A stretch of DNA of 64,000 nt. Source: Myxococcota bacterium (GTDB lineage: Bacteria > Myxococcota_C > UBA6777). The stretch spans positions 1 to 64,000 of the forward strand of contig JAKLKB010000019.1 in the NCBI GenBank assembly GCA_023150835.1, given 5' to 3'. This document shows, one piece after another, positions 49,604-63,766 of this stretch (the first letter of the stretch is position 1; each line of letters opens with the position of its first letter). A model generated the notes under the pieces. The model searched no databases. It saw only the letters and a list, made by a program, of their open reading frames with translations, and was not told where the DNA came from. The position numbers and the translations under genes are program-made.

Positions 49604-51430
49604 GTGATGTTGTGGTGTCGGGCAGTCGTGCGTGGGATCGGGATCGGATGGTGTGGTTGGTTGATGATGCTGTGGTCGTGCCAAGCGCCACAAGAACCGG
49701 GCTGTGGGGATGGAAAGACGCTGTGTTCAGCGCGATGCGTGGATCTTGCGAGTGATGTGGGCCATTGTGGGGCGTGTGGGAAAGCGTGCGGCGCAACCGA
49801 GCGTTGTGTAAAAAGCCGATGTGTCGGGCTTTGCGATGGAAAACAAGTGCGTTGTGGCGAGGCTTGTGTGGATGTGCAAGCGACACGTGCGCATTGTGGG
49901 GCGTGTGGGAAAGCGTGCGGTGCAACAGAAGCTTGTGTGGAAGGGCGTTGTGTGTCTTCGTGCGGGTCGTTGGGGAAAGTCGCGTGCAGTGAGACGTGTG
50001 CGGATCTACAGACGGATGTTGCGCATTGTGGTGTGTGTGGGAAGGCTTGTGATGTGACGGAACGATGCGTGTCTGGGGTGTGTTCGTGTGCTTCAGGAGA
50101 AGGCCGATGTGCGGGGCGTTGTGTCGATCTGCGAGCCTCACGAGAACATTGTGGGGCGTGCGGTGTGGCTTGTGCGGATGGTCAGTCCTGTGCGAGCGGA
50201 GTGTGCGTTGCAGTATGCCCTGAAGCGACGCCGTTGTTGTGTTTGGGCGGATGTATCGATGTCACGCGAGATTCCCGTCATTGCGGGGGATGTGGGAAGG
50301 CGTGTGCGCTGGATCAAGAATGTGTCGGGGGTCAGTGCCTTTGTGCAGAGGGGCTGATGCGTTGTGGGGATCGTTGTGTGGATGTGATGGCGAATGGTGC
50401 GCATTGTGGGGCGTGTGGTTTGGCCTGCGAAGGGGGGCAGGTTTGTTCGGCGGGGGCGTGTGTGGCTTCGTGTCCTGCGGCGACAGCGACGGTTTGTTTG
50501 GGAGGTTGTGCGGATACGCAAAACAACTCATTGCATTGCGGTGCGTGTGGGAAAGGGTGTACGTGGGGGCAGTATTGTGAAAAGGGAGCGTGTCGTTGTC
50601 CCGAAGGACAGGGCTTTTGCGATGGGGCGTGTGTGGATCTGAAGGTGGATCGGCTGCATTGTGGGGCGTGCGGGAAGGCTTGCGCGGGGGGGCAGCTTTG
50701 CGATGAGGGCGCGTGCGTTGCGAACTGTGCGGCCTCCAAAAAGGCGTGTTATGGGGGTTGTGTGGACGTATCAAACAATCCGCGTCATTGCGGGGGATGT
50801 GGTGTGGTTTGTCGCGCAGGGACGGGCTGTGTCAAAGGGCAGTGTCAGTGCGCGGCAGGTCAAGTGCGTTGTGGTCGGTCATGTGTGGAAGTGGCGGCAG
50901 ATCCGTTGAATTGTGGGCGTTGTGGTCTGGCTTGTGGGATGGGCGAGCGTTGCGTGGAGGGGCGTTGTGAAGTGGGTTGCAGTCCTTCGTATCCAGATCG
51001 CTGCGGAGATCGTTGTGTGGATCGCAAGCGCGATAACGCGCATTGTGGGGCGTGTGGCGTGGCCTGCCCGCAAGGGCAGCTTTGCGTGGAAGGCAAGTGC
51101 GCGTTGAACTGCCCTGCTGGACAGAGTCCGTGTGATGGGATCTGTGCGGATCTGCAAACAGACACGCTGCATTGTGGTGTGTGTGGGAAGGCTTGTGCCT
51201 CGTACGAGCGTTGTGTCGCGGGAGTGTGTGCTTGCGAAGAAGGCGTGGGACGGGCGTGTTATACGGGTCCAGCGGGGACGGAAGGAAGAGGCGTCTGCAA
51301 GGGCGGCGTCTCGCATTGCAAACAAGGCCAGTGGTCGGCGTGTGTGGGCGAAGTGTTGCCCTCTGCGGAGATCCCGCAAGATCGGTTGGACAATAACTGC
51401 GATGGCCAAGTCGACGAAGTCGTGCCGTAA
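49604..51430 (+). CDS. Cys-rich lipoprotein of DxxHCGxCGxAC repeats (MXAN_6577/STIG1-like)
   Basis: About 12 repeats; LWS-C signal. Confidence 0.8.
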   Translation: MMLWCRAVVRGIGIGWCGWLMMLWSCQAPQEPGCGDGKTLCSARCVDLASDVGHCGACGKACGATERCVKSRCVGLCDGKQVRCGEACVDVQATRAHCGACGKACGATEACVEGRCVSSCGSLGKVACSETCADLQTDVAHCGVCGKACDVTERCVSGVCSCASGEGRCAGRCVDLRASREHCGACGVACADGQSCASGVCVAVCPEATPLLCLGGCIDVTRDSRHCGGCGKACALDQECVGGQCLCAEGLMRCGDRCVDVMANGAHCGACGLACEGGQVCSAGACVASCPAATATVCLGGCADTQNNSLHCGACGKGCTWGQYCEKGACRCPEGQGFCDGACVDLKVDRLHCGACGKACAGGQLCDEGACVANCAASKKACYGGCVDVSNNPRHCGGCGVVCRAGTGCVKGQCQCAAGQVRCGRSCVEVAADPLNCGRCGLACGMGERCVEGRCEVGCSPSYPDRCGDRCVDRKRDNAHCGACGVACPQGQLCVEGKCALNCPAGQSPCDGICADLQTDTLHCGVCGKACASYERCVAGVCACEEGVGRACYTGPAGTEGRGVCKGGVSHCKQGQWSACVGEVLPSAEIPQDRLDNNCDGQVDEVVP

Positions 51431-51468
51431 GAAGGGGGAGTCGTGATGAGTCGGATATTTGGAAAGAA

Positions 51469-51695
51469 GCGAGTGTTTGGGATATTCGGAGATAGGCGAG
51501 CGTTTGGGATATTCGGAGATAGGCGAGCGTCTGGGATGGTGGGGATGCGACATCGCAACTCCATCTTGTCCGATGGACGGGTGCGGGTCGATACGCGAGG
51601 CCATGAGAGCGTCGATCAGGTATTTGTGAAAGAGCGGGCAAGGCAACCGGTCGATACGCGAGGCCATGAGAGCGTCGATACGCGAGGCCATGAGA
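51469..51695. repeat. Short direct repeats: 27-bp (GTTTGGGATATTCGGAGATAGGCGAGC) and 24-bp (GTCGATACGCGAGGCCATGAGAGC, three copies)
   Basis: Directly visible between the two Cys-rich genes. Confidence 0.8.
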
Positions 51696-51787
51696 TGTTT
51701 GGGATGCGAGCCGATGGGGGCGAAAGCGTTTGGAATGAGCTTTCGTGTCGAGCCATCGCCAAAAGACAGCAGGCAAAGGGTCAAAAG

Positions 51788-54700
51788 ATGCAGCAGCGAA
51801 TCGGTGTATGGGGCTTTTGGCGTGGCGTGATGGTGTTGTTGTGGGGGATGTGGGGAGTGGCCTGTCAGCCTCCCCAGCCCTCTTTGTTGTGTGAAACGGG
51901 AAAAGCCCGTTGTGGCGAGGCTTGTGTAGACGTCACGCAAGATCCGAAGCATTGTGGGGTGTGTGGGGCGGTGTGCCGTTCGGAGGAGCGCTGTGACAAG
52001 GGCTTGTGTGTGTTGCGTTGCGCGGCTGGGACGCAAGATTGCGCAGGGAATTGTGTGGATATCTTGGCAAGCGAAAAGCATTGTGGCGCGTGCGCAAAAG
52101 CCTGTGCAACGGGCGAGCGTTGTTTTTTGGGTCGATGTGTTTCAGCTTGTCCGCCCAATCTCCCCGATCTTTGCGAGGGGACGTGCGTGGACAAACGATC
52201 GGACCGCAAGCATTGTGGGGCGTGTGGTGAGATCTGTGCGGTGGGCCGAGTCTGCCAAGAAGGCGGATGCCGCTGTCCTATCGGGCAGTTCTTGTGTGGG
52301 AGTACTTGTGTCGATCCGATGACCAGTACGCAACACTGCGGAGATTGCAAGCGCCCTTGTGCAGAGGGCCAGATCTGTGCAAGCGGAACGTGCGTTCCTT
52401 CGTGTCCATCGGCAACACCGACGACGTGCTTTGGGGGATGTGTTGATACGCAAAGCCACCGCTTGCATTGTGGGGGATGCGGTCGGGTTTGTTTGGCTGG
52501 ACAAAGCTGCTCTGCGGGGAAGTGTTTGTGCGCCGAAGATATCACGGAGTGCGGAGATCGTTGTGTCGATCTGACCTCGGATTATGCGCACTGTGGGGCG
52601 TGTGGGGCGGCTTGTGCGGGAGGTCAGTTGTGTGCTTTCGGCGGTTGTGTGACGTCATGTCCTGCGGCAACACCCACCGCTTGTTTCGGCGGATGCGTCG
52701 ACACACAAAGCAATCGATTGCATTGCGGAGCCTGCGGTACAGCCTGCGGAGCAGGGCAATCTTGTATCCAAGGCAAGTGTGTGTGCCCTCCCAATCAAAA
52801 GCTTTGTGATGGTGTTTGCGTCGATCCTCGCGCCAACTTCCAACATTGCGGGACGTGTATGCAGATCTGCGCGATGGGTGAGGTGTGTGGTGACGCGAAG
52901 TGCCAGATCCAATGCCCTGCGGCGACGGCGACGATCTGCTTTGGTGGTTGTGTCGATCTGCAAAGTGATACGTTGCATTGTGGCGGATGTGGCAAGCGTT
53001 GCGGCTTTGGAACGGCGTGTGAAAAAGGCCAGTGCGTTTGTGCTGTGGGGTTTGCGCTGTGTGGAGGGCGTTGTCAAGACCTTCAAAACGCACGTGCGCA
53101 CTGTGGGGCGTGTGGCAAGGCGTGTGGGCCAACCGAGTCTTGCGTCAAAGGGGCGTGTGAGCCTGTGTGTTTGCGTGAAGCCCCGACGCGCTGTGGTGCG
53201 TTGTGCGTCGACACAAAGCAAGATGCCCGTCATTGCGGAAGCTGCGACAAAGCCTGTGCGCAAGGCGAGCGTTGCCGAGATGGTCAGTGCGTTCCCGAAT
53301 GCCCTGTGGGGCAGACTCTTTGCGCGGGACAATGCTTCGATCTGCAACGTTCTTTGCAGCACTGCGGGACGTGCGGAAATGCTTGCGCGGCAGGGTCGGT
53401 GTGTAAAGCGGGGCGGTGCGATTGTGTGGATGGCGCTGTGCGCTCTTGCTATGAGGCTCCCGCCGCCACCAAGGGCGTGGGGCCTTGTGTCGCAGGTGAA
53501 CAACGCTGTACAGCGGGTGTTTGGGGCCCTTGCACAGGGCAGGTATTGCCGAGTATCGAGATCAAGGACGGTGTGGACAATGATTGCGATGGGATGGTCG
53601 ATGAGTCCGTACAAGTTCAACTTTTTGCGGGAAATTCGCTGCTGAAAAATGGTGGATTGCTGGAGGCGCGCTTTCATCAACCCGCACAGATCGTCTCGGA
53701 TAGTGCGGGAAATCTGTATCTTGCAGATACCGCCAACCACATGATCCGAAAGATCGATCCACAAGGCAACGTGACAACCTTCGCAGGGACGGGTGTTCCA
53801 GCATTCAAAGACGGGACCGCTCTCCAAGCCACCTTCCAGCACCCCGAAGATCTCGCCTTTGACAGCAAAGGAAACTTGTACATCGCAGACACAGGCAACC
53901 ACGCCATCCGCATGATCGATCTACAAGGCAACGTCAAGACGATCGCAGGTGCCGGAAAGTCGGGATTTCAAGATGGATCTGGTGGACAAGCGCTGTTCTT
54001 TTCTCCGCGTGGGATCGCGTTCGATAAAAATGGGACGCTTTTTGTTGCAGATACGGGCAACCACGCGATCCGCAAAGTCGATCCACAAGGCCAAGTTAGC
54101 CTGATCGCAGGAAATGGCGTCGCTGGATTTAGTGATGGTACGGGCAAGATGGCTCAATTCGACGAACCCACCGATCTGGTCATCGACTCCGCAAACAACC
54201 TGTACGTCGCCGATTCGCAGAACCATCGCATCCGAAAGGTCGATGACAAGGGCGTCGTCACCACCTTTGCAGGGGCGGGCCTTGCAGACTTTCTTGATGG
54301 AAAAGCTCAACAAGCGCGCTTTAAGGCTCCGCGTGGTCTGCTCTTGGACGGGGCTGGAAACCTGTACGTCGCCGATGCCTTTAACCATCGTATCCGCAAG
54401 ATCGACGCTCAAGGCAACGTCTCCACTCTTGCAGGGACGGGAAATGCAGGGTTTAAGGACGACACAGGCTTGAATGCGCAGCTCTATCGGCCTTCTGGAC
54501 TGGCGCTCGATAACAAAGGCGACTTGATGATCGTCGACACAGAAAACAAGCGTGTTCGCAAACTGTCGCTGAATACGGGGATTGTCACCACGTTGACGGG
54601 CGATGATCCGCGTGGTTTTGTCGATGGTTCGGTCGGGCAAGCCAAGTTCAATCGCGTTTCCGCTGTCACCACCGATCTCACCAACGGAGATGTGTTTGTG

Positions 54701-55549
54701 GCCGACAGCGAGAATCATCGCATCCGAAATGTCGATCCCAAGGGCCTGACCACCACGCTGTCTGGAACGGGCCAAGCGGGTTATTTGGACGGTGATGCGG
54801 CGACGGCTCGTTTTCAATCGCCGCGTGGCTTGGTGTTTTCGCACTCTTCTCGGATGCTTTACGTTGCCGACACGCGAAACCATCGCATCCGCATCGTCGA
54901 TCTCCAAGGAAAGGTGACGACCCTCGCAGGAGACGGAACAGCGGGCTTGCGTGATGGTGCGGCGATGCAAGCCAACTTTCGTGAGCCTCAAGGTCTTGCC
55001 CTCGATGAAGCCGCCAACCTCTTGTACGTAGCAGACACAGGCAACCACGTGATCCGCTTGATTGATCTCGCGGCAGGGCAAGTCAAAACCTACGCAGGAG
55101 ACGGCACGTTGGGCTTTGTCGATGCAGACGCAACCAAGGCGCGTTTTGCCGCTCCTCAAGGTATCGCGTGGCAACAAGGGGTGGGGTTGCTTGTGGCGGA
55201 TACGCAGAATGTGCGGATTCGGCTGGTGGATACCAAGCAGCAAGTTCGAACTGTCGCAGGAGCCGGCAAAGTCGCACGCACAGACGGCGAGGCGTTACGA
55301 GCCAACTTTCTCGAACCGATCGGCTTGTTGGTGGGGCGCGACAAACGCCTGTATATCACCGATCAAACAAGCATCCGATGGTTGGAAAAGGGGCGCGTTC
55401 AAACCTTTGTGGGGGCGAGCTATGCAAGCTATCTCGACGGCGATATCTCTGTGGCTTCGTTTGGACAGATCTGGGGTCTGGTGCAACGCTACGACGGTGC
55501 CTTGGTTGCGGCAGATCAGGGATACCACCATCTGCGCTTGATCCAGTGA
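51788..55549 (+). CDS. Cys-rich lipoprotein with C-terminal NHL-repeat propellers
   Basis: GVA-C lipobox; HCGxCG repeats; LYVADT.NH.IRK repeats. Confidence 0.85.
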   Translation: MQQRIGVWGFWRGVMVLLWGMWGVACQPPQPSLLCETGKARCGEACVDVTQDPKHCGVCGAVCRSEERCDKGLCVLRCAAGTQDCAGNCVDILASEKHCGACAKACATGERCFLGRCVSACPPNLPDLCEGTCVDKRSDRKHCGACGEICAVGRVCQEGGCRCPIGQFLCGSTCVDPMTSTQHCGDCKRPCAEGQICASGTCVPSCPSATPTTCFGGCVDTQSHRLHCGGCGRVCLAGQSCSAGKCLCAEDITECGDRCVDLTSDYAHCGACGAACAGGQLCAFGGCVTSCPAATPTACFGGCVDTQSNRLHCGACGTACGAGQSCIQGKCVCPPNQKLCDGVCVDPRANFQHCGTCMQICAMGEVCGDAKCQIQCPAATATICFGGCVDLQSDTLHCGGCGKRCGFGTACEKGQCVCAVGFALCGGRCQDLQNARAHCGACGKACGPTESCVKGACEPVCLREAPTRCGALCVDTKQDARHCGSCDKACAQGERCRDGQCVPECPVGQTLCAGQCFDLQRSLQHCGTCGNACAAGSVCKAGRCDCVDGAVRSCYEAPAATKGVGPCVAGEQRCTAGVWGPCTGQVLPSIEIKDGVDNDCDGMVDESVQVQLFAGNSLLKNGGLLEARFHQPAQIVSDSAGNLYLADTANHMIRKIDPQGNVTTFAGTGVPAFKDGTALQATFQHPEDLAFDSKGNLYIADTGNHAIRMIDLQGNVKTIAGAGKSGFQDGSGGQALFFSPRGIAFDKNGTLFVADTGNHAIRKVDPQGQVSLIAGNGVAGFSDGTGKMAQFDEPTDLVIDSANNLYVADSQNHRIRKVDDKGVVTTFAGAGLADFLDGKAQQARFKAPRGLLLDGAGNLYVADAFNHRIRKIDAQGNVSTLAGTGNAGFKDDTGLNAQLYRPSGLALDNKGDLMIVDTENKRVRKLSLNTGIVTTLTGDDPRGFVDGSVGQAKFNRVSAVTTDLTNGDVFVADSENHRIRNVDPKGLTTTLSGTGQAGYLDGDAATARFQSPRGLVFSHSSRMLYVADTRNHRIRIVDLQGKVTTLAGDGTAGLRDGAAMQANFREPQGLALDEAANLLYVADTGNHVIRLIDLAAGQVKTYAGDGTLGFVDADATKARFAAPQGIAWQQGVGLLVADTQNVRIRLVDTKQQVRTVAGAGKVARTDGEALRANFLEPIGLLVGRDKRLYITDQTSIRWLEKGRVQTFVGASYASYLDGDISVASFGQIWGLVQRYDGALVAADQGYHHLRLIQ

Positions 55550-55603
55550 AGACAAAGAAAGGCACACAGTAGCCTTTCGCCGAAAAGAAATGGAGGTTGG
55601 TTC

Positions 55604-56377
55604 GTGGATATCTTGGTGATCTCTGTGGTTGCTTTTTTGGCGTCGGGGCTGACTCTTTTTTCTGGGTTTGGTTTGGGTACGCTCTTGATGCCGGTTGTTG
55701 CGCTTTTTTTCTCGGTTGACGTGGCGATCGCGATGACTGCGATGGTTCACTTGGCGAACAACCTTTTTAAGGTTGTTTTGCTTGGCAAAGATGCGAACCG
55801 AGCGGTTCTTTGGAGGTTTGGGACGTCGGCTGTTCTGTTTGCTTTTCTTGGGGCGTTGGTGTTGGGGTGGCTGTCGGGGGCTGCTCCTGTTTTTGCGTAT
55901 ACGGTGTTTGGTCGATTGTTTCAGGTTTTTCCGATCAAGCTTGTTGTGGGTGTGTTGGTGCTGATGTTTGTTCTTTTGGAGTTATCGTCGTGGTTTGCAT
56001 CTTTGGAGCTTGACAGAAAGTATCTTCCTCTTGGAGGGATGGTGAGCGGATTTTTTGGCGGGCTTTCAGGACATCAGGGGGCATTTCGCAGTATGTTTTT
56101 GTTGAAGGCGGGTTTGAGCAAAGAAGAATTTGTTGCGACAGGCGTGGTGTTGGCTGTTTTGGTCGACACGTCGAGGATGTTCGTTTACGGGTGGGGGATG
56201 ATCGGCCAACAGCACGGCATCCGATGGACATTGATCATCGTGGCGTCTCTTTCGGCTTTTCTTGGGGCTTATTTGGGCGCGAAGTGGCTTCAAAAGGTGA
56301 CGATCCGTTCGATTCAACTCGCTGTTTCGGCGCTTCTTATCTTGCTTGCTTTGGGGATGATCGCGGGTGTGTTGTGA
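55604..56377 (+). CDS. TauE/SafE (TSUP) family transporter
   Basis: SGFGLGT, GFFGGLSG.QG; about 8 TMs; GGAGG RBS with GTG start. Confidence 0.85.
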   Translation: MDILVISVVAFLASGLTLFSGFGLGTLLMPVVALFFSVDVAIAMTAMVHLANNLFKVVLLGKDANRAVLWRFGTSAVLFAFLGALVLGWLSGAAPVFAYTVFGRLFQVFPIKLVVGVLVLMFVLLELSSWFASLELDRKYLPLGGMVSGFFGGLSGHQGAFRSMFLLKAGLSKEEFVATGVVLAVLVDTSRMFVYGWGMIGQQHGIRWTLIIVASLSAFLGAYLGAKWLQKVTIRSIQLAVSALLILLALGMIAGVL

Positions 56378-56403
56378 TCGTGGGAGGCGGATGGAGGGCT
56401 GTG

Positions 56404-57483
56404 TTAGGGGGTGGCTTGGCGGAGGGTGCCGTTTTCGAGGTCGCGGATGGGGGTTCCGTCGGCGGTATTGCTGAATTGGATGCCACCGCCGCGTTCAGCG
56501 GCAGTGGTTAGGCTTGGGGACATCTCAAAGCCCCATGCCTTGAGCAAGGCGATCGGGTCGATGAATTGTTGTTCGCCTTGGGCAGCGAGGCGACTCAGGC
56601 GGCCCGACATCTCGACATTTTGGACGACACCGCCGCGAACATCGAGGTGGCCCATGTAGAGGACGCGCTTTCCGCGTGCGAGAGCAGGGTTGGTGAGGAT
56701 CACACGGCCTTCTTCGTCTCGGCGCGCCGCAGGGAGGGCGTGGATCGAACCATCCGAAAGGATGGCGAAGTTGTTGGCCCACTTTTGTCCTGAGCTACCG
56801 CGTGCGTAGATATCTTCGTGCATTCCTTCGTCGTAGTGTGCTGCGATATCACCTGTACCCCCCGCACGACGGTCATAATCGATGCGCGTCATGCGTTGTC
56901 CACCCGGGCCCAGTTCGCTGCGCGGTGTGATCACGTTGTATTCGCTTGGATCGTTTTTATCGTCTTGGAGGGCTTTGGGCGTGATCTCGGTGTAGTCAAA
57001 GCGCATATTGCCGGAGGGTTTGGACATGGAGGGATAATCGCTGTAGACGCCTTTGACTTCGCCGCTGCTGCTGCGTTTGGTGTCGTTGACATCAAAGGGT
57101 TCGAGTCCACTTGCGTAGGCTTTGGAGAGGAGTTCTTTGACGGCTGCGGGGATCGGGGTTCCACCGAAACTGGTGTCGCGGATGGTCTTGGCTTCTTCGA
57201 GAGATTCGGGTCGGATCAACTCACCTGCAAGCATGGGGAAGCGGACGCCTGCTTGTTGGGCTTCGTTGAAGGCTTCGAGGGTGGTGCGGTAGCCTGAGCG
57301 GTCAAAGCTGTTGCCTTGGACGTTGATGTTTTTGGCTTGCAAGACGGCATCGCGGATCGCGTTCATCTCGCCGGCATCGACGGACTTTCCAGCCGAGGCC
57401 ACAGCTTTTTGGATATCTTGGGCGTCGAGCATCCCATCGCGGGTAAGCTGGCGCAGGGTGTCTTTGACTTGGCGAACAGACAT
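56404..57483 (-). CDS. Hypothetical protein without signal peptide; possible effector
   Basis: AGGAG RBS; N-terminus similar to the 60536-61534 product. Confidence 0.7.
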   Translation of the reverse strand: MSVRQVKDTLRQLTRDGMLDAQDIQKAVASAGKSVDAGEMNAIRDAVLQAKNINVQGNSFDRSGYRTTLEAFNEAQQAGVRFPMLAGELIRPESLEEAKTIRDTSFGGTPIPAAVKELLSKAYASGLEPFDVNDTKRSSSGEVKGVYSDYPSMSKPSGNMRFDYTEITPKALQDDKNDPSEYNVITPRSELGPGGQRMTRIDYDRRAGGTGDIAAHYDEGMHEDIYARGSSGQKWANNFAILSDGSIHALPAARRDEEGRVILTNPALARGKRVLYMGHLDVRGGVVQNVEMSGRLSRLAAQGEQQFIDPIALLKAWGFEMSPSLTTAAERGGGIQFSNTADGTPIRDLENGTLRQATP

Positions 57484-57503
57484 CTTTGGCTCCTGTAGGT
57501 GTC

Positions 57504-57694
57504 ATACGAGATCCGAGAGAAGTGTGTTTGAAGGGTAGGTGCGATCCGCTGTAGACGCCCTGTTGTTGGGCAGCCACATACGCTTGGTGGGGGGATCGGT
57601 ACCGCGCCAACGAGCGATCCGCTATAGACGCCCTGTTGTTGGGCAGGGGGCTGCCCCTACGTGTTTTAATCGCACACCTTGGTGGATTTCGTGT
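57504..57694 (-). repeat. Family 1 element (copy F) with internal duplication
   Basis: ATACGAGATCCG start; GCGATCCGCT.TAGACGCCCTGTTGTTGGGCAG twice; CTGCCCCTAC. Confidence 0.8.
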
Positions 57695-57712
57695 CACTTG
57701 TTGGTTTGGTGG

Positions 57713-60376
57713 TTAGGGGCGTCCGTCGCGCAACAGCGTCAGCGCGAGATCACCTTTGCTCATCTCGGAGTTGACCCATTTGGTGGAGAAGCCTGCACGG
57801 TCGGCTTCACGGGTCACGCGATTGCCGCGTAGGTCGGCGATAAACTCTTGGGCGCGGCGGAATTCACCCCACACAAACTCGGTCATACGCTGATCTTCGA
57901 GCAGTTGTGTGTGCTTGCCACCGTCTTGGTTGAGGTTGGAAGCAGAGAAGGCCGTCTCACCGAGGGGTTGGCTGGTGTTTGCATCAAAGGTCAGCGCGGA
58001 GCCTCGGGCTTTGGCAAAGTCGTTGAGGGCCGAGAAGAAAGCGTCTTGTTCGGACTTTGGTTTGGCCAAGGTCTCGCGCAGAAGGTTGTGGAATGTTGCG
58101 GGTGCATCGGTGTTTTTGGCGAGGCCGCGTTCGACGGCGTAATCCATAAACAGGCCGCCGCGTGCGTTTTGTACGGCTGCTTGGGCTTTTTCGATGGCTT
58201 CCACGAAAGGCTTTTCATAACCGAGTTCGATCTGCACTTCGTTGACGACGGTGGCATGGAACATCTTGTCGGGTGATACGGGCTTGGCACCCGAACGCTC
58301 TTCGGGGGTGAGGTTTTTCCACGTTTCGGGGGTGTAGTATTCGCTGACATCAAAGGTGTCGATCAAGAAGTTCCAGTTGGTGCGGTCGTTTCCAGCGTAG
58401 GCTTTGCGCATATTGTCGAAGGAGAGCGTACAGGCCGAAGTGCCAGAGGCTTCGATTTGGCGGTGGAGGATATCGAGGTGTTCGTTGACGAGGTGGGTGC
58501 GCAGACCGCGCATGGCGGCGTCTTTGTCGGTGGCGTTTTGGAGGGCGTTTTTGCCGTTGTCGTTGGCGTATTTGGAGAGATCTTGGATGAAGGCGTCTTT
58601 GTCGGGGCCTGCGAGGATCTGATCGAATTTTTGCAAGAAGGGTCCGACGGTTTGGATCTTTTTGAGTTCGGGATAACGCTCGCGCATAAAGGACAAGGTT
58701 TCTGCAGGGAAATTCATCCCACGAGATTCGGGGCCACGAGCGCCTGCGATATCGCGGCGGCTGTTGTCCATCAGGGCGGAGAATTCGTCGTAGGCGCTTT
58801 GGATCTCGTTTGCGACGACATCGCGCTTGGCGGCTTCGAGTTTGTTGGCAGTGACGGCGTTATCGGGCCAAAGTTGTTTGAGGGTGTCGAGGGTGACGCC
58901 GCTTTGAGCGAGCGAGGGATCGAGGGCGATCAGTTTGTCTTTGCAACGTTCGACAAAAGCGCTGCGATCAAGCAGGCTGGTTCCAAGTTGACGGATCTTG
59001 TCGGCCTCGGGGCCGGAGAATCCGCCTTTTTGCAAGAGGTCAAGGGTTTCGCGGATCTTGGGTTCGCCTGTGTTGCGAAAGAGGTCGACGGTCGAACTGC
59101 GCGAGGTTTCGTTGAGGTGGAAGCGGCTACGGGTTGAACGTACATGGGCTTTGTCTTCGAGCAAGAGCACATCTTTGTGCTCGCCGATATCGGGAAGTGC
59201 GCCTTTTTCGTTGAGAGCGTTGTAGACGATGCCCATCGCTTCGATGGGTTTGGGGGTTCCGCCCCATTCCCATGTGGACATCCCGCTGCGGATGGTTTCG
59301 TCAAGGCCGTTGACATCGGCTTCGGAAGGGTTGTCTTTGCGGACGTCGGCTTTGTCGGCGGCTTTCATCCCGCTTTCATCGACGTTGGAGCCGACTTTGG
59401 ATTGGATCAGCACGCGCCGAACACCGCTTGGTTCGGGGGTTGGTTCATCGCGGCGGATGCGTGCGCGAACGGACATATCGTTGTTGAGCAGAGAAAAATC
59501 TTTGGTGTCGTAATAAGTGTCTTCGTTGTAGTCGGTCCCAAGGGAGACTTCGTGCTGTCCGCTGCGTTCGTCGAGTTCCATTCGGCCTGATTCGACGGTG
59601 AGCGAGATGTGAGGATTGGCTTCGCGGACGCGGTGTGCATCGCTGTCCCAACGCATCTCATCGAGGCTCATTCCGTTGTAGCCGATGGTAAAGGCTTCGG
59701 CATCTTTGGCTTTTTGCATACGATCAAGGGCGCTTCTGCCGCTGCGGTCGGTGCGCAAAAGCTCGACAAGCTGGTCTTTGTTGAGACCATCAAGGCGGCG
59801 GACGGATTCGAACTCTTGACCATTTCGACCGACTTGTGGGCGCATCCCTGCGAAGGTGGTGGCGCTCATAAACGGCACACCTTCGAGCGGATCAGCTTGT
59901 ACGGGATCACGAGACAGCAAAAGGCCGAGTACACTGGTGGAACCTTCGGTGCGTGTGGCTTTTCCGAAGGGTGTGTAACCAGAGGCATAGCGATGTTCGG
60001 TTCGATCGAGTCCAAGGGCTTTTCCGAGCTCGCTCGAAGCGCGCAGATCGACGGCGGTTCCAGCTTTGACTTTGGAGGTATCTTTGACGATATCATCGAG
60101 GGCTTGCATCAGGTCGCTGAAATAGGAGCGGATATCTTTTCCGGCGGGGAGTCCGACTTCTTGGGCGACTTGTGCGGGGTTGGAACGGTATCGATCAAAG
60201 AAAGCGTTGAGTTGATCGCTGTTTTTGATCTCTTGGGCGTGGGAGCCTTCGCCGACTTTGATGGAAACGCCCTTTTTTTCGAGTTCTTGGCCGACGGCTT
60301 TGAGCCATGCGTCGCGGTTTTGTCCGATCAGGTCTTTGCGGAACTCGTAGCCGTATTTGGTGTGGATCGTGGACAT
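57713..60376 (-). CDS. Large protein with a split CYTH-like (triphosphate tunnel) domain
   Basis: EDTYYDTKDFSLL....VRARIR...IQSK and distal EVQIEL; no signal peptide. Confidence 0.6.
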   Translation of the reverse strand: MSTIHTKYGYEFRKDLIGQNRDAWLKAVGQELEKKGVSIKVGEGSHAQEIKNSDQLNAFFDRYRSNPAQVAQEVGLPAGKDIRSYFSDLMQALDDIVKDTSKVKAGTAVDLRASSELGKALGLDRTEHRYASGYTPFGKATRTEGSTSVLGLLLSRDPVQADPLEGVPFMSATTFAGMRPQVGRNGQEFESVRRLDGLNKDQLVELLRTDRSGRSALDRMQKAKDAEAFTIGYNGMSLDEMRWDSDAHRVREANPHISLTVESGRMELDERSGQHEVSLGTDYNEDTYYDTKDFSLLNNDMSVRARIRRDEPTPEPSGVRRVLIQSKVGSNVDESGMKAADKADVRKDNPSEADVNGLDETIRSGMSTWEWGGTPKPIEAMGIVYNALNEKGALPDIGEHKDVLLLEDKAHVRSTRSRFHLNETSRSSTVDLFRNTGEPKIRETLDLLQKGGFSGPEADKIRQLGTSLLDRSAFVERCKDKLIALDPSLAQSGVTLDTLKQLWPDNAVTANKLEAAKRDVVANEIQSAYDEFSALMDNSRRDIAGARGPESRGMNFPAETLSFMRERYPELKKIQTVGPFLQKFDQILAGPDKDAFIQDLSKYANDNGKNALQNATDKDAAMRGLRTHLVNEHLDILHRQIEASGTSACTLSFDNMRKAYAGNDRTNWNFLIDTFDVSEYYTPETWKNLTPEERSGAKPVSPDKMFHATVVNEVQIELGYEKPFVEAIEKAQAAVQNARGGLFMDYAVERGLAKNTDAPATFHNLLRETLAKPKSEQDAFFSALNDFAKARGSALTFDANTSQPLGETAFSASNLNQDGGKHTQLLEDQRMTEFVWGEFRRAQEFIADLRGNRVTREADRAGFSTKWVNSEMSKGDLALTLLRDGRP

Positions 60377-60501
60377 CGTGGGCCTTTCTTTTTGAAACAA
60401 GCGCCAACGCGCCCTTCCTTCGGGGAGAATGGGGCGGTATGGTGGTGGGTCGTGTGGGCGCTTTGTTTGGAGGTGTGTCGCGTTTGGGAAACTGTCTTGC
60501 G

Positions 60502-60528
60502 TTATCGGATCGAATTGGAAAAAGTTTC
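60502..60528 (-). promoter_or_regulatory. Sigma28 (FliA/WhiG)-like promoter
   Basis: GAAACTTT-N11-TCCGATAA versus consensus TAAAGTTT-N11-GCCGATAA. Confidence 0.6.
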
Positions 60529-60535
60529 GGCGCTC

Positions 60536-61534
60536 TTAGCGTTGGACGTCGATCTTCCACATCCGCTGATCTCCGTCAGAGACCATCCAAAGGGTGTTTT
60601 CTCCGTCAAAGGACAGCCCTTCTGGCTTGGCGTGTTTGGGCAGATCGAGCGTTGTATGCCCGAGGTATTCGAGTTCGACCTGTTCGAGCAGCGCGCCCGG
60701 GGCTGAGCGATGGCGAGATTGGATCGCCAACTCGGCGATGGTGCGGGACTCATCGCTGAGAAGGAAGAGGTGGCCGGTTTTGGGGCAGATGGCGATATCG
60801 CTGAGATCGGCGAGGTGTTCTTTGACTTCGTTGGGCAGTTTGAGCAGGTGGGCGGTGGTCAGGTCAGGGAGTGCAAAGATACCGATCTGGCGGGGTTCTC
60901 CTTCGTGGATGGCGACAATGTGTTGTTTGCCATCGGCGGAAAAGCGCGCAGGAAGGATATCAAGACCTTCCCATCCTTTGTTGTGGGTGTCGCCGAGGGT
61001 CGGCAGGCGACCGAGCCGTTCGGCCTCTCCGAGCTTGGGGTGGCCTTTTTTGTCGAAGGAGAGGGGGACGGCGTACACAGCCCGCGAGTCTTCGGAGAGT
61101 GTGTAGGCGGTTTTGCCATCTTCGGACAAGCAAAGCCCTTCGATACCTTGGGCGGCTTTGTGTTTGGAGCCGATCTGTTTGGTGGTTTCGCCTTGGTGGG
61201 TTTGATAGAACAGGCCCTTGTCGTCGTCTGCGATCAGCCAACCTTTTTTGGTGCGGATGACGCCGCTGGCTTCTTTGGAGCCGAGGGCGTGTTCTTCGGT
61301 GATGCGGAGTTGGGCGTGGGTTGGGAGGGGTCGCGAAAGGCTTTTGTAAAGTTGTCGGATGTCTGTTTCTTCGAGTGCATCGCGATGTTGGCGTACAAAG
61401 TCATCGACGAGAGCGCGTTCTTTGGGGGATACGGTGGTTCCTGCGGCTTGGCGGAGCGCGCTAATCTCTTTTTGAGACAAGTGAGGCTTGGAACCCAAGG
61501 CGAGAAGCTGTTGTTGGAGGCGTTGAACAGACAT
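60536..61534 (-). CDS. YjiK/SdiA-regulated-like beta-propeller with extra N-terminal helical domain
   Basis: EASG, EGL, NKGWEGL, DLSD..ICP.TGHLFLLSDES, KPEGLSFD. Confidence 0.75.
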   Translation of the reverse strand: MSVQRLQQQLLALGSKPHLSQKEISALRQAAGTTVSPKERALVDDFVRQHRDALEETDIRQLYKSLSRPLPTHAQLRITEEHALGSKEASGVIRTKKGWLIADDDKGLFYQTHQGETTKQIGSKHKAAQGIEGLCLSEDGKTAYTLSEDSRAVYAVPLSFDKKGHPKLGEAERLGRLPTLGDTHNKGWEGLDILPARFSADGKQHIVAIHEGEPRQIGIFALPDLTTAHLLKLPNEVKEHLADLSDIAICPKTGHLFLLSDESRTIAELAIQSRHRSAPGALLEQVELEYLGHTTLDLPKHAKPEGLSFDGENTLWMVSDGDQRMWKIDVQR

Positions 61535-61749
61535 GTTGGATGCCCTTGTCGTGCAAAGTGGGGAGAGTGTTCGGTGGATTGGACGACAAGTCGATGTTTC
61601 ATGTCAAGGATTTTTTGTCACGCGATTGTCACATGATTGCAGGCGAGATGTTTCACAAGCGGGGCGGGAAGAAGAGGGCGATGATCTCGATAGGAGTGAC
61701 GCAGTATAATTCGCGGAAGGGTTGTTTTTGGGGTGGGTTGTCTCGGTGC

Positions 61750-62424
61750 TCAGGTGGCTTTTTGTGCGACGAGGCGGTATTCAAAGCGCAAAGCCCCGTT
61801 GAGAAGGACTTGTTTGAGTTGGCAGCCGCTGGACCATTGGATCTGGATGCGGCCTTCAAAGCGGTTGTTGAACTTGTTGCCTTGGAGTTGGCCGGTGCCG
61901 CTGATGTAGCTTTCTTCGACGCGGACACATTCGATGTTGGGGATGCCTTTGAGGCGCATGGGTTCGCGGATACCGAGGGTGAATTGAAGGCGCGTGCCAT
62001 CAATAAACCCTTCGAGTTTCACAGATTCACCGGCGGCGGAGGCTTCGACATCAAAGCGATTGTTGGCGGTTTGGTTGAGTTGGGGCATGGTGATCGAGGC
62101 GGTGCCTGAGGTGGCTCTGAGAGGGCAGATCCTGTAATCGGTGCATAGGCAAAGTCGTTTGTTGGAAGCGGTGCATCCGTCGTTTCGGATGTCAACGGTG
62201 AGGGCGCCATCTTGGCTTTCAAAGACGCCTGTTTCTTTTTGGGGCAGTTCTGCGCCGCCAAGCAACAAACGAAGCTCGGAAAACTGGAGGTTGTAATTGC
62301 CGGGGATGGCTTTGGCGACTTCGGGATCGATGGGAGTGGGGATCGGGTTGAGGCCCACACACCCGATGTATAGGGGAAGATAGAGAACGACAAAAAGCAA
62401 AGACACAAAGCGAAAGGTGTGCAT
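61750..62424 (-). CDS. Hypothetical lipoprotein
   Basis: AAGGAGG RBS; signal ending YIG-C. Confidence 0.65.
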   Translation of the reverse strand: MHTFRFVSLLFVVLYLPLYIGCVGLNPIPTPIDPEVAKAIPGNYNLQFSELRLLLGGAELPQKETGVFESQDGALTVDIRNDGCTASNKRLCLCTDYRICPLRATSGTASITMPQLNQTANNRFDVEASAAGESVKLEGFIDGTRLQFTLGIREPMRLKGIPNIECVRVEESYISGTGQLQGNKFNNRFEGRIQIQWSSGCQLKQVLLNGALRFEYRLVAQKAT

Positions 62425-62509
62425 GAAGACCTCCTTGATCGGTTGGACAGCCACACAACAACATAGGCGATCTTTTGTTGTGTGCCAAATCTTTGTGGAC
62501 GCCTTCTGT

Positions 62510-62989
62510 TTGGGAAAAAGTTTCTTGTTGGATCTTGCGTGGTGGGCATTGACGCGGCGCTGGTTGAGGGAGGTCAACACCAAGATGCTTTCAGGATACC
62601 CTGTAAAGCCGCGAAATACAAAAGAGAAAGCAACTTTAGAATTCAGCCTTTCAGCCAAAACCAAATCTGCGGTTCGCTACGAAAGCACATACAACCCAAG
62701 GGACGAGGCGTGGGCAGGAAAAGCAGGGCGGCCTTGGAATCCCGGTCTGGTGATCTATGCCCATTCGGACGGCGGATTTTCTGTTTGGGATCCAGCGCGT
62801 AATTATTGGAAAAAGAAAGGGAACGTAGACGTCCAAGAGCGCCTTCCTGCATACGTTTTTACTGCATCGGAGGTGTGGGATGGTTTGTGGGTGGATGAAG
62901 ACGGCCAACGGCGCACACCGATCTGTAACGGTTTGTTGTACGATTGGGCGAGTTGGATACGAGAAAAAGGAAAAGAAGCGGACGCGATG
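62510..62989 (+). pseudogene. Internal fragment of an ABC/AAA-type ATPase gene
   Basis: Begins at LGKSFLLD (second half of a Walker A) with no start; no Walker B. Confidence 0.6.
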
Positions 62990-62990
62990 C

Positions 62991-63530
62991 CAACAATGGC
63001 TGCAAGCGCACCCCGACGCGGCGAGGCCTCGCGATTATTGGTCTCCGTTTCGCTCGGCGTTGGCGGAGGGATTTCGAAATCTTTGCGCTTACGGTGCCAT
63101 GTACGAACCTTCGGGCCAAGTCGATCATTTTGTGAGTTGGGACGAAGATCCGAGCCTTGCTTTTCGGTGGGAGAATTATCGCTACGCATCGGGTTGGTTG
63201 AATGCAAGCAAAAAAAACCTTCGATCTTCGGATCTGTTGGATCCTTTTATCGTGCAGGATGGTTGGTTTGAGATATCTCTGCCTTCTCTTCAGTTGTTGG
63301 TTTCTGCCTCGATTCCTCCAACCATCAGGGCCAAAGCAGAGAATTTGTTGACACGCCTTCATTTGCGCGATGATGAGCGCGTGATTCGTCAACGTCGTGT
63401 GTGGCTTGATCTGTATGAAAAAGGAGATCTGAGTTTGTCAGGCTTGCGTGTGATGGCTCCGCTGGTTGCGGATGCGGTGGAAAAGCAGGCCAAAAATTGC
63501 GTCTCGAATAAGAGTGACGCAGTTCGATAG
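62991..63530 (+). pseudogene. 5'-truncated HNH-like nuclease gene
   Basis: LCAY...VDHF...LAFRWENYRY...LN..K, LLDPF; joined out of frame to the ATPase fragment. Confidence 0.6.
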
Positions 63531-63660: not shown

Positions 63661-63766
63661 CACCCCACACCCCACAAGGGAGCGCCGCCCCCTTGACCCC
63701 GTACGGGCGAAAAGATCACTGTTTTTCACACAGGCGACTCTGTCGCTTGAGGAAGCGCGAACGCGG
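63661..63766 (-). repeat. Family 2 element (copy e; terminal arm displaced to 63535-63543)
   Basis: CACCCCACACCCCACAAGGG..CCCCTTGACCCCGT...CTGTCGCTTGA..GCGAACGCGG. Confidence 0.8.

Follow-up and report, generated by a model that had tools for sequence, protein, structure and literature searches.

Three signal-less proteins encoded at one locus

The 64,000-nucleotide stretch of DNA analysed here (the window), from contig JAKLKB010000019.1 of a Myxococcota bacterium, carries on its minus strand three genes that we named P1, P2 and P3 (Table 1), as well as a sigma28-type promoter motif before P2 that recurs in the type III secretion locus of the same genome (G000, 93% complete). As the first-pass annotation had proposed, the three genes are real co-oriented open reading frames (ORFs), and none of their products has a Sec or lipoprotein signal, each lacking a hydrophobic N terminus (maximum 9-residue hydropathy of 0.68, 0.39 and 0.88 for P1, P2 and P3, respectively, judged by a hydropathy rule without SignalP). 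Relatives were collected by an order-level search, which gave 6 genomes, and a phylum-level search, which gave 5. The signal-less P1–P2–P3 set is syntenic within a small Myxococcota-like lineage, with the order P2–P3 preserved in G001, G002 and G005, while P1 has the same orientation as P2–P3 in G001 and is divergent in G005 and G003. In G003 (L015:6095-6792), P2 and P3 are adjoining remnants after a large deletion, and P1 is intact. The P2–P3 gap is shorter in relatives than in the window, where the two repeat pieces within it have ~80-180 genomic matches per position and the stretch between them 6-8. The locus is present in RNA-labelled datasets from activated-sludge, wastewater and bioreactor runs, in which the evidence consists of assembled contigs that cannot show transcription starts. 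Overlapping RNA contigs span the P2–P3 gap, and P3 is likely co-transcribed with P2.

Table 1. Features of the P1–P3 locus, in window coordinates
Feature	Position	Strand	Description
Candidate P1 control region	61602-61633	minus	TTGACA (61607-61602) and TGTGAC repeat (61633-61628)
P1	61534-60536	minus	332 aa ORF
Sigma28-type promoter motif	60528-60501	minus	GAAACTTTT-N10-TCCGATAAC, 124 nt before P2 start
P2	60376-57713	minus	887 aa ORF counted from ATG
Genome-wide repeat, two pieces	57491-57700	.	within P2–P3 gap
P3	57483-56404	minus	359 aa ORF

P2, the largest of the three proteins, belongs to the CYTH/triphosphate tunnel metalloenzyme (TTM) proteins. Its predicted model (pLDDT 88.6) shows a YgiF fold in which large helical inserts interrupt the barrel, spreading it over residues 184-886, and this model superposes on YgiF with a Z score of 16.1 and an rmsd of 3.1 over 201 aligned residues. 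The best Foldseek matches are TTMs as well, but with E>0.001, and the CYTH Pfam match is below cut-off (17.3 vs 23.2 bits). E188, E190, Y288, R304/R306/R308, K327, R416/R418, E717 and K874 are invariant in the 20 aligned rows; by analogy with TTM motifs, we take these to be the ExE metal motif and the basic residues of the tunnel. P2 thus has the barrel and the acidic and basic tunnel residues of YgiF, AtTTM3, Vtc4 and class IV adenylate cyclases, but it differs from these enzymes by its length, its split barrel and an extra N-terminal domain. It differs also by the existence of lipoprotein and signal-less forms, which point to work outside the cytoplasm: among 15 loci with P2 homologues, 7 encode lipoprotein-type, 5 signal-less and 3 truncated forms. 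A P1-type propeller or P3 adjoins P2 in both lipoprotein and signal-less loci (e.g., L024, L028 and L032). Among the 10 P2 loci that were read, 3 with lipoprotein homologues have polyphosphate-type neighbours, recognised by eye: ppk1 together with ppx, ppk2 together with a PhoH-like gene, and an H+-pyrophosphatase gene.

P3 consists of an EF-hand-like leader and a conserved domain that falls outside any named family. There are 133 P3 homologues, and a hydrophobic signal was found in 103 of 120, with a lipobox in 86 by a crude rule. Two signal-less homologues, P0012 and P0141, carry peptidoglycan (PG)-binding domains. Mapped on a quick, unrooted P3 tree of 66 chosen rows, with 5 labels set by hand, the presence of a signal changes 8 times, at least 4 of these changes being forced by strong branches. 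Although the predicted P3 model is confident (pLDDT 93.6), three methods gave no PDB match for its fold, which also falls in no named Atlas cluster; this alone does not make the fold new. The residues that are invariant in P3 include H, R, W and D, as is typical of an active site. A possible resemblance of P3 to RhsP2-type ADP-ribosyltransferases (ART) was considered; full-length fold and profile searches gave no ART-type match. Since P2 and P3 both have lipoprotein-type homologues and signal-less P3 homologues carry PG-binding domains, an extracytoplasmic function is indicated.

P1 is a YjiK/SdiA-regulated, phytase-like beta-propeller (PF06977, E=4.8e-13, above cut-off; PF13449, E=2.1e-7). 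It differs from other YjiK propellers in two respects: where these carry a signal or anchor, an EF-hand-like leader (residues ~1-51) is fused to the propeller, and its gene is linked to one for a TTM. The leaders of P1 and P3, which had been thought to be a shared domain, are indeed homologous, by profile–profile alignment and not pairwise. Pairwise BLAST is not significant (14 of 52 residues identical, E=4.5) and single-sequence phmmer gives no match, whereas hhalign of profiles built from 8 P1 and 119 P3 leaders gives a probability of 95% (E=3e-8), which stays at 94% when the P3 profile is restricted to 107 distant homologues, most of them lipoproteins. The P3 profile has 32 PDB matches, all to troponin C or myosin light chains and all at the leader (best E=0.048); in P1 the leader loop is short and degenerate, with no Pfam EF-hand match. 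The leader possibly binds calcium, as its resemblance to EF-hands would suggest. Because it follows the lipoprotein signal in most P3 homologues and is absent from P2, we consider the leader to be part of the mature protein rather than the export tag that it was first taken for. Scanning the called genes of the genome with a leader profile recovered, as anticipated, a further fusion that also bears the promoter motif. This 756-residue signal-less protein (C204:29059-31329, L044) has two copies of the leader, a 20.1-bit site and a weak transglutaminase-elicitor match.

A sigma28-type motif before P2 and across genomes

A home-made model called 4,642 genes covering 78.5% of the bases, and motif matches were scored in 3,999 upstream regions with repeats masked. 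A first matrix was seeded with 7 sites chosen by eye from genes with low-complexity N termini and then refined iteratively with the window left out; it settled on G(C/A)AAC(T)TT(T)-N10/11-xCCGA(T/A), which can be summarised as G(C/A)AACTTT-N11/12-CCGA(T/A). The P2 site ranks second among the 3,999 regions. With the observed side inflated by training, there were 14 matches of at least 20 bits vs 0 in each of 8 nulls, and 34 of at least 16 bits vs 2-8. A second matrix was built from 20 sites of other genera, 17 of which were collected by a pattern derived from the first motif, so that it is not fully independent; it gave 17 matches of at least 18 bits vs 0, and the P2 site again ranked second. 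Both boxes of this site are identical in G001, although the spacer and flanks differ. The sigma28 promoter motif that had been noticed before the large gene is confirmed. Unsupervised dyad counting of upstream regions gave no clean signal. An excess of GAAA-N15-CCGA came largely from one repeat family, which contains this pattern, inflates naive sigma28 scans and was masked thereafter.

The same cannot be said of the weaker site suggested before P1 (61594-61568). It scores 3-6 bits, the P1 region ranks 395 and 522 of 3,999 with the two matrices, and ACCGAACA becomes GCTGAATG in the 98%-identical G001, so the site is not conserved. The RNA contigs over P1 reach 61574 and 61577, beyond the start that this site would imply and on its upstream side. 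CTTGACATGAA, upstream of P1, is preserved in G001 and G003, and no full sigma70 match was called in the candidate P1 control region. TGTGAC repeats found there (61613-61633; L012:11530-11570) are preserved in G001 and G005 and are a possible regulator site.

As transcription starts ~7 nt after a -10 box, the P2 transcript would be expected to begin at ~60494. In two studies, RNA contigs have an end or a drop in depth 22-42 nt past this position in the downstream direction, which is a weak hint: in run X3 a contig of depth 34.5 ends at 60460 beside a contig of depth 6.7, and other P2 contigs end at 60472 (X13) and 60373 (X14). Hints of the same weak kind come from two other motif-bearing genes, one with contig ends at 2588 and 2593 vs an expected ~2602, where X7 overshoots to 2687, and one with a contig end at 11620 vs an expected ~11612, where three runs read through.

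The motif is found upstream of sctI in all five genomes of the host family (12.1-23.3 bits), in which a strict pattern gave 33 matches vs 14 in controls. A looser pattern in five Myxococcaceae-family genomes gave 13 matches, spread over four of them, vs 0 in controls, and all 13 begin with GCAAC, though the pattern admitted other letters. Eight of these sites precede genes for signal-less proteins with low-complexity N termini, three of which bind peptidoglycan, and five do not. Orthologs of the sigma factor gene found next to sctI in the host genome (see below) are present in 25 of the 31 genomes from the family to which an Archangium metagenome-assembled genome (MAG) belongs, the family from which the five genomes above were drawn, and the sigma–sctI order is maintained across the relatives and Myxococcaceae-family genomes. 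The sctI motif is often weak in Myxococcaceae-family loci, reaching at least 8 bits in 8 of 25, and the five strongest of these sites overlap the coding end of the sigma gene. Loci with a sigma factor and a small gene, also with weak sites, occur in Polyangiales-type MAGs.

A type III secretion locus with its own sigma factor

The host genome encodes, as expected from the first-pass annotation, both a type III export apparatus and a FliA-like sigma factor. SctV is above cut-off (803 vs 692 bits) and FlhA below it, there is a single SctR, and sctQ-U lie on C113. The sigma factor gene, C132:131, is immediately upstream of sctI-like, sctJ, L, N, O and P-like genes (all sct names except SctV, SctR and SctI were assigned by eye). 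Its product has the FliA/WhiG family as best matches, yet it is below cut-off. No flagellin or rod/hook gene was found in this 93% complete genome (0 matches to PF00669 and PF06429), and three secretins are encoded outside the type III secretion system (T3SS) loci.

Myxococcus xanthus has a needleless T3SS, designated T3SS* and encoded by mxan_2434-2464, according to passages of three papers (PMC12075869, PMC10433427, PMC3459982). These passages name neither a T3SS* effector nor a regulating sigma factor. T3SS* is needed for prey lysis, as stated in passages of the same papers and of PMC10849154; its effectors are given as unknown in a 2023 review (PMC10433427), and none is mentioned in the passages of a 2025 paper (PMC12075869). 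Myxobacterial T3SS* is described as being without SctF. The host system resembles that of M. xanthus in its set of SctV, SctR-U, J, L, N, I-like and LcrH-like genes, and in that no secretin is linked to it and flagellin is absent. It differs in that its genes are on several contigs, no Tad/Kil system was found, and two genes are weakly SctF-like. The latter (C76:1348-1887 and 2341-2859; L057 and L056) encode two small Gly-rich proteins with needle matches below cut-off (Pfam E=2-4e-4, TIGR02105 E=3-7e-4), and their motif sites score 12.0 and 16.9 bits. In the host genome T3SS* genes are scattered over C113, C115, C131 and C132, and no Tad/Kil platform was found in the lineage; one review confines co-occurrence of T3SS* and Tad to Cystobacterineae.

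Besides P2, 33 genes have sites of at least 16 bits, and the domain scan covered 27 of them. Three encode T3SS parts (SctI and an SctF-like protein, neither of which reaches cut-off, and a TPR/SycD-like chaperone), and five encode signal-less proteins with wall-targeting domains (SH3 with C39, two PG-binding, GH46 and a weak SLT), while 13 have no Pfam family. A start of the form M-x(1-3)-[IV] with no hydrophobic stretch is enriched, in 11 of 28 motif matches vs 335 of 3,964 other genes (p=1e-5, seeds excluded). All seven ORFs matching a PG-binding profile built from three motif genes look signal-less. Since T3SS* is needed for lysis, signal-less wall-targeting proteins fit in such a regulon. 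Two VWA proteins with MopE repeats (C79:23124-25754 and C203:42125-44866) have signal peptides and strong motif sites; their homologs in G003 and G004 carry motif sites too, and they are possibly surface partners of the regulon.

In flagellar systems, FliA (sigma28) controls a late regulon of type III export substrates. The regulon described here is similar in its sigma28-family factor, its CCGATAA-type -10 box at 15-16 nt and its signal-less proteins as likely type III substrates. It differs in its -35 box, which is G(C/A)AAC(T/C)TT and not TAAAG, in the lack of a flagellum and in its members, which are apparatus parts and enzymes. Of the sigma28 regulon originally suggested for the cluster, the tie to type III export and the membership of P2 held, while the genome has no flagellin and the P1 site fails. 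Flagella provide known cases of type III substrates coupled to sigma28, and their T3SS*-linked use is not described in the searchable literature: neither a sigma regulon linked to T3SS* nor its motif turned up in the literature searched, a search in which subscription papers were outside scope.

Proposed phosphate release outside the cytoplasm and competing explanations

Our preferred reading, to which we give a probability of roughly 50%, is that P2, likely with its operon partner P3, belongs to a sigma28-type regulon linked to T3SS*, and that the three signal-less proteins are likely T3SS* cargo that releases phosphate. The sigma factor of the T3SS locus would read the motif and transcribe P2–P3 together with the genes for the apparatus and for lytic proteins, and T3SS* would then carry the signal-less proteins across the inner membrane, the step for which we infer rather than observe the route. 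P2 might release phosphate from prey triphosphates or polyphosphate, with P1 and P3 acting as its putative partners. In the broader form of this reading, which we regard as an even bet, a FliA-derived sigma factor in the T3SS* locus reads GCAAC(T/C)-N14/15-CCGATAA across Myxococcota-like bacteria, its regulon being the T3SS* cargo list, in which families switch repeatedly between lipoprotein and type III export.

Several observations weigh against this interpretation. TadB and TadC were not found (in the 93% complete genome PF00482 matches only GspF and PilC genes, and ATPase matches beyond GspE/PilB look PilT-like by eye), so the Tad/Kil system evoked by the first-pass annotation is not supported and the outer-membrane step is left unexplained. 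T3SS presence was rejected as a feature separating signal-less from lipoprotein genomes, because all 11 genomes checked have an SctV/FlhA-like match; the genomes with lipoprotein forms also hold SctV-like genes and a similar sigma locus, as in G049 and G051, where a locus with the sigma factor and a small gene has 9-bit sites. The P2 site is found only in the window genus: P2 orthologs in G005 and L021-L023 have no motif upstream (best 3.4 bits), and G005 has TTGACG-N18-TATACT in its place. P3 has no site of its own with the second matrix, P1 has none either and is hence outside the regulon, and the X5 contig crosses the P2 site. P1–P3 do not have the long low-complexity N terminus typical of regulon members, 3 of the 27 scanned motif genes encode signal peptides (two being the VWA proteins), a strong site precedes only 2 of the 6 scored PG-binding genes, and absence of a hydrophobic N terminus is not by itself enriched (15 of 28 motif matches vs 2,162 of 3,964 others). 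A second, orphan FliA is encoded on C206. Finally, characterized TTMs are cytoplasmic.

This last point, which includes YgiF-type TTMs, leads to the strongest alternative, which we consider unlikely: P1–P3 would be a cytoplasmic triphosphate or polyphosphate module that has lost its signals because it works inside the predator, with P2–P3 merely co-induced with the T3SS regulon in one genus. The restriction of the P2 motif to the genus suits it, as do the 30 of 33 P2 protein-search matches that are signal-less by a crude rule and the presence in the regulon of a TPR chaperone, a HEAT-repeat protein and a kinase-like protein that are probably cytoplasmic. However, P3 homologs are mostly lipoproteins or secreted, signal-less ones carry PG-binding domains, and the label changes forced on the P3 tree suit swapped export routes better than repeated moves to the cytoplasm.

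Less probable still are toxic effectors, with P2 draining NTPs or making cAMP in prey and P3 being a toxin. The TTM fold does take in class IV adenylate cyclases (Z 11.5), the invariant residues of P3 resemble an active site, and lytic proteins are among the regulon neighbours. Against this, P3 matches no toxin family or fold and has no Rhs-sized member (longest 489 aa among 76 representatives), the cluster shows no obvious dedicated immunity gene, homologs anchored as lipoproteins would not get to the prey cytoplasm, and polyphosphate genes lie beside some P2 homologs. The toxicity initially suspected for the cluster is not supported, with no toxin fold found and a P2 context that points to phosphate metabolism, and exported phosphate-releasing enzymes are the best reading. 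It is improbable that the orphan FliA or another sigma factor reads the motif, with the signal-less proteins leaving by vesicles or lysis: the C206 protein is the only sigma factor above the FliA cut-off (222 vs 189.6 bits, with 157 for that of the T3SS locus) and has orthologs in 4 of 5 relatives, but the top motif site of the genome is directly behind the T3SS-locus sigma gene, before sctI, and this gene order is kept in relatives and Myxococcaceae-family genomes.

If P1–P3 are indeed exported through T3SS*, its cargo list would consist of signal-less wall hydrolases for lysis and nutrient-releasing enzymes such as the split TTM. P2 would be a triphosphate tunnel enzyme acting extracellularly, which bears on how predators release phosphorus in activated sludge, and a flagellum-derived sigma factor would have been retained with an evolutionary intermediate of the injectisome. 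The motif offers a way to find T3SS* cargo and, combined with a signal-less N terminus, yields a ranked, testable list of candidates in culturable Myxococcaceae.

As for the surroundings of the cluster, P3 RNA contigs reach ~300 nt beyond the stop codon (56080-56404), into a convergent tauE gene, of which the stretch 55600-56080 is almost without RNA contig cover. Two large genes encoding Cys-rich, repeat-containing lipoprotein-like proteins, the second with NHL-like repeats, lie on the plus strand at 49604-55549, and this pair adjoins the cluster in G000, G001 and G002. Two abundant repeat families are present in the window, at 63690-63760 and in the P2–P3 gap. On the other side (62417-63530, plus strand), an ATPase gene is followed by an HNH-like gene; the former has no start and is seemingly broken when compared to the 437-aa version in G001.

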